Positions 39,645 through 41,672 of a stretch of 64,000 bases of DNA are shown here, piece by piece; position 1 is the stretch's first letter; each line of letters starts with the position of its first letter. A program made the position numbers and the translations under genes. The DNA is from an uncultured Planctomycetales bacterium (lineage in GTDB: Bacteria > Planctomycetota > Phycisphaerae > UBA1845 > Fen-1342). The stretch is taken from assembly GCA_964523405.1 (NCBI GenBank), contig CAZGAQ010000004.1, positions 76,984 through 140,983 on the forward strand, read 5' to 3'. The notes beneath the pieces are model-generated. The model was not told the DNA's origin. It ran no database searches and saw only the letters and a list, made by a program, of their open reading frames with translations.

Positions 39645-41672
39645 TCACGCAAACACCCCGTGCACATACCACTCCCCCTCCCCCATCGTCCGAAACAGCC
39701 AGTACTGCTCCCCCTCCGCCGTCGTCACCCGAAAGTAATCCCGCCGCACGTCCGGCCCACGCCACCACGCCGTCTCGATCCGCTCCGGCCCGCTCGCCTC
39801 CGCCACCACGTACTCCCGCCCGCCATACCAAAACCACGTCGGCGGCCCGTCCGGAACCAGCGCAATCACCCGCACCAACACCGGCCGCGCGAGTAGCCGC
39901 ACCGGCCGCGGCAGGCGCAGGGTGGGGTGGGCGTCTCGCCCGCCAGGCAGGGTGGGGTGGGCGTCCCGCCCGCCAAGATTTGGCCGCACCCCCATCCCCT
40001 GTCCCGACGACCCTCCGCTGCTCGCCGCCGGCCCCACCTGGTCCGCCTCCAACCCCGCCTCCGCCACACACACGCACCGAAACGCCATCTCCGGCTGGTG
40101 ATCATCCACCAGCTCCGGCCGCACCACCGCCCCATACCCCACCCGCCCCGCAACCTGATCAATCAGCGTCCCCAAATCCTCCTCATCCCCCGGCTCCCGC
40201 GGCACAAACAGCTCCCCCTGCCCCGCGTGCCAGCGCGAAATCTCCCGCGCCACCAACCGCAGCCCCACCGGCCCCGGATTCGGATCGAACAACTCTACGT
40301 GACTGCGGCGAACCACCTCCGCCGAAGCGGCCCCCCCACTCCCCTCCCTCCCAGGGAGGGGTTTGGGGAGGCTAAAGCCGTCACTCTCCGCGCGACCCCT
40401 AAACGCCGTACCCTCCCGTAGTCCCCCCTGAGAGGGGGGACGGTCCGCGCCGCCTTCACCCCCCTCCCTCTCACGGAGCGACCGGGGGAGGGCGTCTTCT
40501 CCCCCCTCCCCCTTGGGGAGGGGTTGGGGGAAGGTGTCACTTCCCGCATCTCCGCCTCCCTTGGGGGACCGACCTCCGGTCGGTCTCACGTGAGAGAAAG
40601 CGGCCTCTTCTCCCATCCCCCCCTCCACCCGCTCCAACTTCTCCGCCAAAAGCTGCAGCACATGCTCACGCCGCCGCGACGCCCGCGCCAGCGCCACCAC
40701 CACCACCTGCGGCGGCCGTCCCTCGTAGTACAGCACGCAGTCCAGCCGGCGCAGCCCCGCCGCGCGCCGCTCCACCACCGCGAAAATCTCGTCCAGCAAC
40801 TCCCCCGCCACCCGCACCAGCGCGCGCGTGTCCGCCACCGGCCCTTCAAACCGCCGCCCCGCCTGCGGTACATCCACCGGCTGATGCGGCTGCACCCCCT
40901 CAAACACCTCTCCCAGCGCCTGCTGCAAACACCGCACCAGCCCCGCCCCAAACCGCGCCGGCAGCGTCGCTCGCGGCAGCGTCAGCAAATCCCCGATCGT
41001 CCGCACCCCCAGCGCCGCCAGCCGCTCGGCCACCACCGCCTCGATGCGCAGCCTCTCCGGCGGCAGCGGCGCCAAATAGGCGCTGCCCTGCCCCACCGGC
41101 ACCAGACACAACTCTTCTCGCCCGCTGCTCGCCAGCGCCTGCGCCGCCCCCACCGTGTCCGCCACCGCCACCCGCGCCGTAAAGCCCCGGCGCGCCAGGC
41201 CCGCCACGACCTGACGCGCCAGACGCTCCTCTCCTCCAAAGAGCAACTCGCAGCCGGTGATATCCACCAACAGCGTGTCCGGCTCCACCGGCTCCACGAT
41301 CGGACTGAACCGCACCGCCCAGTCCGCCAACCGCACCAGCGCCGCCCGGTCCCGCGCCGGCTCGTGCTCCCGCGCCTCCAACTCCGGCACGATCGCCTGC
41401 GCCTGACCGAGCGTCAGCCCCGCTCGCAAACCTGCCGCCCGCGCCTGCGGACAAACCTCCGCCACCACCAACGCCGCCCCCACCGCCCGCGTCAACGCCA
41501 ACGGCCGCTCCGCCGGCACCAACGCCGGTGTAGCCGTTGTAGCCTCCGCAGTTGCCGCCCGCGCCGGCGCCATCCGCGCCGCCACCGGCGCCCCCTCACC
41601 CGCCGCGGCGCCTTCGCTCCGCACCCGCTCCGTCGACAGGTACGGCAGATGCACACACAGGATGCGCCGCAT
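39645..41672 (-). CDS. imuB: ImuB-like Y-family DNA polymerase (SOS mutagenesis cassette) with repeat-derived insertion
   Basis: N-terminus MRRILCVHLPYLSTE. C-terminus PERIETAWWRGPDVRRDYFRVTTAEGEQYWLFRTMGEGEWYVHGVF, the ImuB signature. Central ~100 aa is encoded by palindromic repeats. Confidence 0.85.
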   Translation of the reverse strand: MRRILCVHLPYLSTERVRSEGAAAGEGAPVAARMAPARAATAEATTATPALVPAERPLALTRAVGAALVVAEVCPQARAAGLRAGLTLGQAQAIVPELEAREHEPARDRAALVRLADWAVRFSPIVEPVEPDTLLVDITGCELLFGGEERLARQVVAGLARRGFTARVAVADTVGAAQALASSGREELCLVPVGQGSAYLAPLPPERLRIEAVVAERLAALGVRTIGDLLTLPRATLPARFGAGLVRCLQQALGEVFEGVQPHQPVDVPQAGRRFEGPVADTRALVRVAGELLDEIFAVVERRAAGLRRLDCVLYYEGRPPQVVVVALARASRRREHVLQLLAEKLERVEGGMGEEAAFSHVRPTGGRSPKGGGDAGSDTFPQPLPKGEGGEDALPRSLREREGGEGGADRPPSQGGLREGTAFRGRAESDGFSLPKPLPGREGSGGAASAEVVRRSHVELFDPNPGPVGLRLVAREISRWHAGQGELFVPREPGDEEDLGTLIDQVAGRVGYGAVVRPELVDDHQPEMAFRCVCVAEAGLEADQVGPAASSGGSSGQGMGVRPNLGGRDAHPTLPGGRDAHPTLRLPRPVRLLARPVLVRVIALVPDGPPTWFWYGGREYVVAEASGPERIETAWWRGPDVRRDYFRVTTAEGEQYWLFRTMGEGEWYVHGVFA
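39912..39974. repeat. tandem direct repeat 2 x 30 bp inside imuB (encodes GGRDAHPTLP x2)
   Basis: caggcagggtggggtgggcgtcNcgcccgc repeated head to tail. Confidence 0.7.
40338..40590. repeat. cluster of 4-5 degenerate copies of the CCCTCCC...GGGAGGG palindromic element within imuB, ending in 25-mer gggggaccgacctccggtcggtct
   Basis: actcccctccctcccagggaggggtttggggagg; tcccccctgagagggggga; ccccctccctctcacggagcgaccgggggaggg; cccccctcccccttggggaggggttggggg; gaccgacc-tcc-ggtcggtc. Confidence 0.75.

Follow-up and report, generated by a model that had tools for sequence, protein, structure and literature searches.

How does a protein-coding gene come to carry a block of short DNA palindromes in frame, and does the resulting peptide serve the protein? 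The question is raised by imuB of an uncultured Planctomycetales bacterium (GenBank assembly GCA_964523405.1), which we analysed within a 64,000-nt stretch of contig CAZGAQ010000004.1 (positions 76,984 to 140,983 of the forward strand; hereafter the window, in whose own numbering all positions are given). The gene (39645..41672, minus strand) encodes a Y-family polymerase homologue of 675 aa that is putatively inactive in catalysis. An original prediction, made from the letters of the DNA, had described a repeat block at 40338-40590 in which four to five degenerate CCCTCCC...GGGAGGG units are translated in frame, together with a separate tandem repeat in the same gene. The in-frame position was confirmed: the peptide PLPKGEGGE and two copies of GGRDAHPTLP are present in the translation of imuB. 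We consider it probable that the block is made of units resembling repetitive extragenic palindromic sequences (REPs), from at least three families, that accumulated in a structurally permissive loop on the surface of ImuB, where ribosomes translate them as ~114 disordered residues.

The insert in ImuB and its hairpin units

In an alignment of 25 ImuB sequences (query included), the protein of the window carries a lineage-specific in-frame insert of 342 bp (~40284..40625, minus strand), encoding a Gly/Glu/Arg/Pro-rich loop of ~114 aa at residues 350-463. The insert is absent from 21 of the 24 orthologues, and the other three have shorter, unrelated inserts at the same site. It lies between the conserved ...LLxxRLERVD and PGVTGLxLVARE... 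motifs, with homology resuming in register on both sides. The original prediction had named conservation of the segment as protein sequence among orthologues as evidence against a repeat origin, and no such conservation was seen.

The GC content by codon position was 0.76/0.62/0.69 in the insert versus 0.82/0.51/0.89 in the core of the gene (residues 53-349); i.e. the third-position enrichment is missing from the insert, as would be expected of DNA of non-coding origin. There are no stop codons in the imuB frame and between one and six in each of the five other frames, and only 6.7% of composition-matched shuffles of the insert were open. Given an insert that is open in the frame of its host gene alone, and so few open shuffles, selection for read-through is evident.

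To place the insert in the protein, we used an AlphaFold2 model of ImuB built from the ortholog alignment, with a mean predicted local distance difference test score (pLDDT) of 71.7. The best structural matches of the model in Foldseek were Dpo4, DinB and Dbh (E 1e-17). Between residues 270 and 480 the modelled elements (strand 270-274, helix 282-302, strands 305-316 and 319-332, helix 335-352 and, after the insert, strand 470-480) follow the order beta-alpha-beta-beta-alpha-beta, which is that of the little-finger fold of Dpo4 and DinB. Since the insert stands between helix 335-352 and strand 470-480, the model places it in a loop before the last beta-strand of a little-finger-like domain rather than in an inter-domain linker, where the original prediction had expected it; the feature of the true linker is the tandem repeat, described below. 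Residues 355-463 have a pLDDT of ~30 and no secondary structure, and a QGELF motif follows ~20 residues downstream of the insert. The accommodation by ImuB of more than 100 extra residues within its predicted little-finger-like domain is useful for mutasome engineering and modelling.

At the DNA level, five perfect or near-perfect hairpins lie within the insert. A scan of the window for perfect stems of at least 8 bp with loops of 3-5 nt returned 38 raw hits where shuffles averaged 5.4, and seven of these 38 are inside 40341-40585, where they amount to four distinct hairpins. Repeat finding identified a 45-nt sequence in direct copies at 40327, 40447 and 40489 and, besides these, several inverted repeats. 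The units fold with an 8-9-bp stem and a 3-nt loop. The pattern CCCTCCCNNNGGGAGGG, which does not allow for the 1 nt between the arms at that register, matched one site only; copies were found with a 37-mer and with nhmmer, for which the profile was made from the four copies of the CCCTCCC/GGGAGGG element found in an RND efflux permease gene (see below).

Three units in imuB (A, C and D) are degenerate copies of this CCCCTCCCTCCC-AGG-GAGGGG element, all on the plus strand, i.e. antisense to imuB. The best of them is unit A (40338..40382; nhmmer E 5.4e-7), whose hairpin at 40341-40361 has a 9-bp stem and a 3-nt loop, with fold z-scores of -3.8 and -4.3 on the two strands. It shares 24 identical nt with the RND copy at 27204-27227, 13 kb away. 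Unit D (40503..40535; E 7e-4) is a variant copy with a 9-bp-stem hairpin at 40503-40523, and its local alignment with unit A scored 33 (shuffle mean 17, maximum 31). Unit C (40455..40492) gives a weak match (E 0.027) and is a member of the direct-repeat family D2, at 73% identity. The other two hairpins differ in sequence, so the four to five units of one family that had been predicted reduce to three. Unit B (40421..40441) is a perfect hairpin, GTCCCCCCT-GAG-AGGGGGGAC, of another sequence family. Unit E (40563..40586, plus strand) is the 24-mer GGGGGACCGACCTCCGGTCGGTCT, which folds as GACCGACC-TCC-GGTCGGTC with an 8-bp stem and a 3-nt loop and represents a separate REP-like family. It recurs exactly on the plus strand at 48865..48888, between the 3' ends of convergent genes for a PQQ_2 protein (47467..48765, plus strand) and a glycoside hydrolase (49036..51414, minus strand), and no dinucleotide shuffle reproduced the match. 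This recurrence had been predicted as a 25-mer palindrome at 48864; the exact repetition and the stem-loop hold, with the shared string 24 nt long and starting one position later. The block reads as a mosaic of at least three hairpin families.

The loci that we fetched from other genomes held no copy of unit B, of unit E or of the GGGAGGGGTTKGGGG form in which units A and D occur, and no target-site duplication was visible in imuB. A higher-order duplication within the block (units A+B against D+E) was considered and rejected, only the units themselves being alignable. The Rfam search returned only sub-threshold hits, to sX13 (22 bits, cut-off 50) and whalefall-1 (20 bits, cut-off 37), which we regard as compositional. 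On its G-rich arm, GGGAGGGGGCAGGGGGAGGG, the element matches the canonical motif of a G-quadruplex (G4), and unit A has a G4 motif on both strands.

Copies in an efflux pump gene and in other genomes

The well-preserved copies of the element lie in frame in the gene for an RND efflux permease (26635..30498, plus strand; NCBIfam RND_permease), and the nhmmer profile links them to the imuB units, upholding the claim that one family occupies two unrelated genes of the window. There are four, all on the plus strand: r1 (27132..27196; E 1e-17), r2 (27191..27259; E 6e-21), r3 (27791..27859; E 1e-20) and r4 (29753..29818; E 4e-19). Each is a 65-70-nt unit with the core CTCCCCTCCCTCCCAGGGAGGGGGCAGGGGGAGGGTC (at 27146, 27206, 27806 and 29765), and all are in one orientation and one frame, read as PTPLPPREGAGGGSEP. 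The copies fall where the protein fails to align to solved RND pumps. None of the four is present in pump orthologues at 60-71% identity, and in other lineages the same loops hold other repeat-derived peptides. The pump copies also supply four of the nine plus-strand G4 motifs in the window. The positions of the G4 motifs in the element copies are 27161-27180, 27221-27240, 27820-27840 and 29780-29799, and 40331-40352 in unit A (minus strand, the sense strand of imuB).

A contig of an independent JGI assembly (L044) is collinear with window positions 19460-33068 at 97-99% identity. Its pump protein is 98% identical and 20 aa shorter, since the contig is without exactly 60 nt, corresponding to copy r1; a direct repeat of 8 nt, CCGCCGCG, flanks the indel. 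The sequence of r1 departs from that of r2 at several positions, so r1 is no fresh duplicate, and the polymorphism reflects either an insertion in its own right, with duplication of the target, or loss by deletion between microhomologies. With a 60-bp copy present in one and absent from the other of two strains that are ~98% identical, the element family is still changing in this lineage. It is in this sense, from dispersal and copy-number polymorphism, that the element may be called mobile, as the original prediction had it.

Dispersal extends beyond the lineage. The 35-nt core of the element gave 31 exact matches at 28 loci in ~9 metagenome-assembled genomes (MAGs) of Planctomycetota, Phycisphaerales and Planctomycetales, and a scan of viral contigs gave none. 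The consensus of 35 anchored copies was ACC-CCCCTCCCTCTCAGGGAGGGGGCAGGGGGAGGGTC-GG, with a conserved unit of ~40 nt. In the anchored alignment the element was often inside arrays with a second palindromic family (CCCTCTCCC..GGGAGAGGG), which is not separately present in the window. A codon-phase analysis of the flanks showed that most copies in other genomes are intergenic or at gene ends; in this window, all seven copies of the CCCTCCC family lie inside genes. The in-frame copies found elsewhere are in aconitase (between its two Pfam domains), NuoG, MoeA and a DUF2400 protein, and use three different sense frames. For unit E, a 22-nt core occurs in 15 metagenome contigs with the consensus CTG-GGGGACCGACCTCCGGTCGGTC, in which the CTG prefix is conserved, and is often paired there with an inverted partner hairpin.

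We also searched 120 ImuB homologues for the element peptide motifs. The sole match, P0085, carries the same element family (PSLPGRGQGKG) in a different little-finger loop, an independent insertion into another ImuB. A single match in 120 homologues therefore gives no strong imuB-specific enrichment.

Known repeat systems and the origin of the insert

Tagged REPs are 20-40-bp stem-loops with 5-13-bp stems that are mostly intergenic, often between convergent genes, with a minority inside open reading frames (ORFs), at sites that form loops or linkers; their hosts include members of the PVC superphylum (PMC3733652). The units described here share the short, G/C-rich palindrome with an 8-9-bp stem and the repetition, with seven family copies in 64 kb and 31 in other genomes. 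They likewise cluster with other units and lie in part inside ORFs, in loops or linkers, with a repair gene as host, and the copy of unit E at 48865, between convergent genes, is in a classic REP location (PMC3733652). Many of the intragenic GTAG/CGTC REPs are in genes for replication and repair, including dnaE2, and their clusters encode 43-82 aa (Di Nocera et al. 2013, PMC3733652), compared with ~114 aa for the imuB insert. The GTAG/CGTC tag that marks such REPs was absent from the CCCTCCC element on either strand and from the unit E consensus. There is also some likeness to REP doublets (REPINs) and bacterial interspersed mosaic elements (BIMEs), which are mobilised by Y1 HUH transposases of the RAYT type, as unit E often forms inverted doublets with a short spacer in metagenome contigs and the CCCTCCC unit occurs in mosaic arrays; the copies in the window, in contrast, are all singlets in direct orientation.

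A motif scan of the window and the fetched DNA found one Y1_Tnp gene resembling the REP-associated tyrosine transposases (RAYTs), on contig L005 (4217-4717, minus strand; Pfam E 5e-9). GTAG-tagged REPs with the stems CGGCCGAC/GTCGGCCG stand on either side of it (4150-4210 and 4740-4790), and it lies 0.8 kb from the aconitase gene that has an in-frame CCCTCCC element in its inter-domain linker. Judged by its sequence, this locus, from the MAG of an uncultured member of the Planctomycetales, is a REPtron of textbook form. The GTAG-CGGCCGAC type of REP that accompanies it is absent from the window.

Two further systems invite comparison. The Rickettsia palindromic elements (RPEs) are palindromic repeats found in frame in protein genes (Ogata et al. 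2000, summarised in PMC10969869). Both they and the present units are in frame in unrelated housekeeping genes, are translated, occupy fold-compatible sites and are absent from orthologues. RPEs, however, are ~100-150 bp long and Rickettsia-specific, whereas those described here measure 20-75 bp, have an extremely high G/C content and come from Planctomycetota, and several distinct families are stacked in one loop. We do not claim membership of the RPE family, and the separation is one of size, base composition and host phylum, not of sequence comparison. Small, non-autonomous transposable elements of the miniature inverted-repeat type (MITEs) such as ERIC, BOX, Correia and Nezha can fuse in frame with host ORFs (review PMC10969869). 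The units are likewise small, non-autonomous and fused in frame with ORFs, but each consists of one hairpin and has no terminal inverted repeats apart from it of the kind seen in insertion sequences (IS). The sole candidate resembling a target-site duplication is the 8-nt CCGCCGCG at the polymorphic r1, which could equally be deletion microhomology.

Because the tag is lacking and the DNA scanned held no RAYT flanked by these units, we set them apart from tagged REPs and class them as a new REP-like family, which resembles RPEs or intragenic REPs in behaviour and belongs to neither; a literature search found no description of this repeat family in Planctomycetota. In-frame insertion of REPs and RPEs, repair genes included, is already published, so the kind of event is known and the repeat family is new. 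Within that kind, the imuB insert is a clean and fairly extreme case, in which at least three families together contribute ~114 aa to the inside of a folded domain. No new mechanism is revealed. What the case adds is an extension of 'selfish DNA inside protein genes' to an undescribed, untagged and extremely G/C-rich family in Planctomycetota/Phycisphaerae, and a practical guide for annotation: PLPPREGAGGGS, PSLxGRGQGEG and PLPGREGSGG in planctomycete proteins mark repeat-derived loops, not domains.

The accumulation of REP-like units that we favour would be a passive process. REP-like selfish DNA would land at many sites, spreading as non-autonomous DNA by means of a hairpin-recognising transposase or some other copy mechanism. 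Insertions that break the frame or the fold would be purged by selection, so that in essential or selected genes only in-frame copies in loops and linkers persist. The survivors would then decay, and the peptide they encode would have no required function. From their much greater decay, we infer that the copies in imuB predate those in the pump gene.

Several points weigh against this account. About 40% of the insert is outside any recognised unit, units C and D match the element profile only weakly, and unit B has no second copy in the window or the fetched loci. No transposase is tied to these hairpin families: a RAYT flanked by the CCCTCCC element or unit E was not present in the DNA scanned, the one on L005 being accompanied by another REP. 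The closest ImuB orthologue is only ~57-64% identical, which precludes an empty-site comparison for imuB. In the pump gene, the 60-bp polymorphism is explained equally well by deletion between the 8-nt direct repeats, and the shared orientation, frame and extended similar flanks of the copies mean that part of the spread is possibly intragenic copying. The neutrality of the peptide is an assumption.

If that assumption is dropped, an insert of repeat origin may have been co-opted, either as a long flexible tether near the clamp motif, on its upstream side, that alters the docking of ImuB on the beta clamp, ImuA or DnaE2, or through a hairpin or G4 in the DNA or mRNA that tunes imuB expression. 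Such a role would fit a frame that is open over 342 nt when the five others are stopped and only 6.7% of shuffles are open, a position ~20 residues before the conserved QGELF at the site of the clamp motif (PMC11791113), G-rich arms that match the G4 motif on both strands of unit A, the unrelated inserts in the same loop of three other orthologues, and the frequency of intragenic REPs in repair genes including dnaE2 (PMC3733652). However, the frame must be open in any case for the conserved C-terminal domain to be expressed. The sequence of the insert is conserved in no orthologue and has no codon periodicity, its units are decayed, no Rfam family reaches threshold, and the presence of the element in unrelated housekeeping genes is contrary to an imuB-specific role. 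There is nothing specific in support of an adaptive role, and we regard co-option as unlikely.

The block might instead have arisen where it stands, by slippage and hairpin-templated strand switching in a G/C-rich linker, the likeness to the pump copies then being low-complexity convergence. We disfavour this and give it very little weight: unit A shares 24 identical nt and its flanks with copies 13 kb off (E 5e-7), unit E has an exact 24-mer 8 kb away and a 22-nt core in 15 unrelated metagenome contigs, the core of the CCCTCCC family is identical across ~9 genomes, and no higher-order duplication was found in the block. These observations outweigh the low complexity of the region, the weak matches of units C and D, the uniqueness of unit B and the want of a visible target-site duplication in imuB, as well as the real local duplications that do exist in the operon (2 x 30 bp in imuB and another in imuA). 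A repeat-induced mis-join in the MAG contig is scarcely credible. Short repeats are a classic cause of mis-assembly, a single assembly covers imuB, the exact protein is recorded from one NCBI contig only and its homologues are mostly MAG-derived. Yet the insert is an exact multiple of 3 and stop-free in the frame of the gene only, conserved sequence is in register on both flanks, the units of 20-45 nt are below sequencing-read length, and three of the four pump copies are reproduced in the independent JGI assembly at 97-99% identity.

All seven CCCTCCC-family copies and both copies of unit E in the window are on the plus strand, with imuB and the pump gene on opposite strands. A shared orientation is the pattern expected of strand-specific insertion into single-stranded DNA, for which the independent events here are too few to reach significance. 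The untagged, G4-prone hairpins could be a new class of REP that inserts strand-specifically into single-stranded DNA at replication forks, as do the HUH enzymes of the IS200/IS605 and RAYT types. It is a further possibility that mutasome genes (imuB here, the P0085 ImuB, and dnaE2 in the literature) are preferred or selectively retained targets, in which case repeat load would modulate SOS mutagenesis. We think this reading as a whole decidedly improbable.

The imuAB operon and other repeats of the window

The identification of imuB is sound. Its product has a Pfam IMS (Y-family polymerase) domain (E 3e-14), and a database search returned 149 ImuB homologues, mostly of 495-560 aa and from Phycisphaerae/Planctomycetota MAGs, several of them named 'protein ImuB' by JGI. 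In a phmmer alignment to E. coli Pol IV, the position of the DinB catalytic Glu is Thr in ImuB ('PDT' versus 'LDE'); the N-terminal Asp positions fall outside this alignment, and ImuB reads VHLP there. In mycobacterial ImuB a clamp-binding motif is followed by a RecA-NT motif and then by ImuB-C (PMC11791113). QGELF is at residues 485-489, and in the 25-sequence alignment Q485 and F489 are invariant and L488 is present in at least 90%. By position it corresponds to the mycobacterial clamp-binding motif, and is a putative one here. The model further has a helix at 494-511 and a beta-rich C-terminal domain at 592-674, so that the predicted architecture, with the motif after the little finger, a RecA-NT-like helix and an ImuB-C domain, follows that in PMC11791113.

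The tandem repeat of imuB consists of two 30-bp units at 39917..39976 (placed by Tandem Repeats Finder, TRF, at 39917-39975; score 111, period 30, 2.0 copies, 96% match); it had been predicted at 39912-39974, and the two units stand with the start moved to 39917. It translates in frame as GGRDAHPTLP x2 (residues ~566-586), in a low-pLDDT stretch (538-588) that forms an alignment-variable linker before the ImuB C-terminal domain, and the 30-mer is found nowhere else in the window. Apart from the hairpin block, then, the gene has this simple tandem duplication in the hypervariable linker that joins the RecA-NT-like helix to ImuB-C. The core of the tandem unit, GGGCGTCYCGCCCGC (a 5-7-bp hairpin; window 39929-39973), occurs twice in metagenome contig L031 (region 6380-6430), and one of these copies, with a related unit (GGGCGTCCCGCCCGT) next to it, shares an intergenic hairpin cluster with unit E. 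A further REP-like unit may thus underlie the tandem repeat, for which three hits in ~290 kb are thin evidence.

A second lineage-specific segment of ImuB, at residues 26-52 (41517-41597), is Ala/Thr-rich with pLDDT below 50. Its GC content is flat by codon position (0.78/0.78/0.78) and it is missing in most orthologues; there is no recognisable hairpin unit inside it. Other ImuB homologues have repeat-like peptides of their own in the same variable regions: PLPYGRGSAG, QNPKSKI and SGIGDRGSGLESD in P0090, IPQSLRSFGMT in P0037, P0041 and P0047, and FRAATVET x3 in P0115. With the element copy of P0085, they suggest that repeats have landed recurrently in the loops of ImuB in this phylum.

Directly upstream of imuB lies an imuA-like gene (41596..42234, minus strand), the start codon of which is a guess. 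NCBIfam ImuA_translesion (NF033429) matches the larger ORF 41596..43260 with E 3e-26 and 92 bits, under the 150-bit cut-off. The ORF extends 77 nt beyond the imuB start codon (41596-41672), an unusually long overlap. As the ImuA profile match stops ~37 codons short of the end of the ORF, imuA may have lost its original stop. A dnaE2 gene was not found next to imuB: the ORFs scanned, which include the neighbours and the three longest others (980-1632 aa), are non-polymerase. It may be elsewhere in the genome.

In the 5' part of imuA there is a 3.5 x 30-bp tandem repeat (42096-42200; TRF score 126), so that both genes of the operon hold repeats of 30-bp period. If the ATG at 42234 is the start, the imuA repeat is translated in frame as TEQWHTGGSV / AGQRHTAGSV / AEQRHTGGLV / TEQGY. 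There is an overlap between the first of its units and a 21-nt palindrome, CCACTGCT-N5-AGCAGTGG, that is present four times in the window, at 33152-33172, 42190-42210, 42274-42294 and 63541-63561, and is followed by CACAC on one strand at 42190 and 63541. The likely imuA start has two copies at it or a short way upstream, and the remaining two are near the 5' ends of other genes; the 44 fetched loci had none. This palindrome could act as an operator, perhaps as the SOS box of imuAB, or could represent a further REP-like family.

Finally, long tandem repeats with a 138-bp period are present at 51949-52619 and 55159-55718 (TRF scores 325-524), in the large plus-strand ORFs 51520..54141 and 54871..57264. 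They presumably encode protein repeats of 46 aa and have no relation to the hairpin elements.

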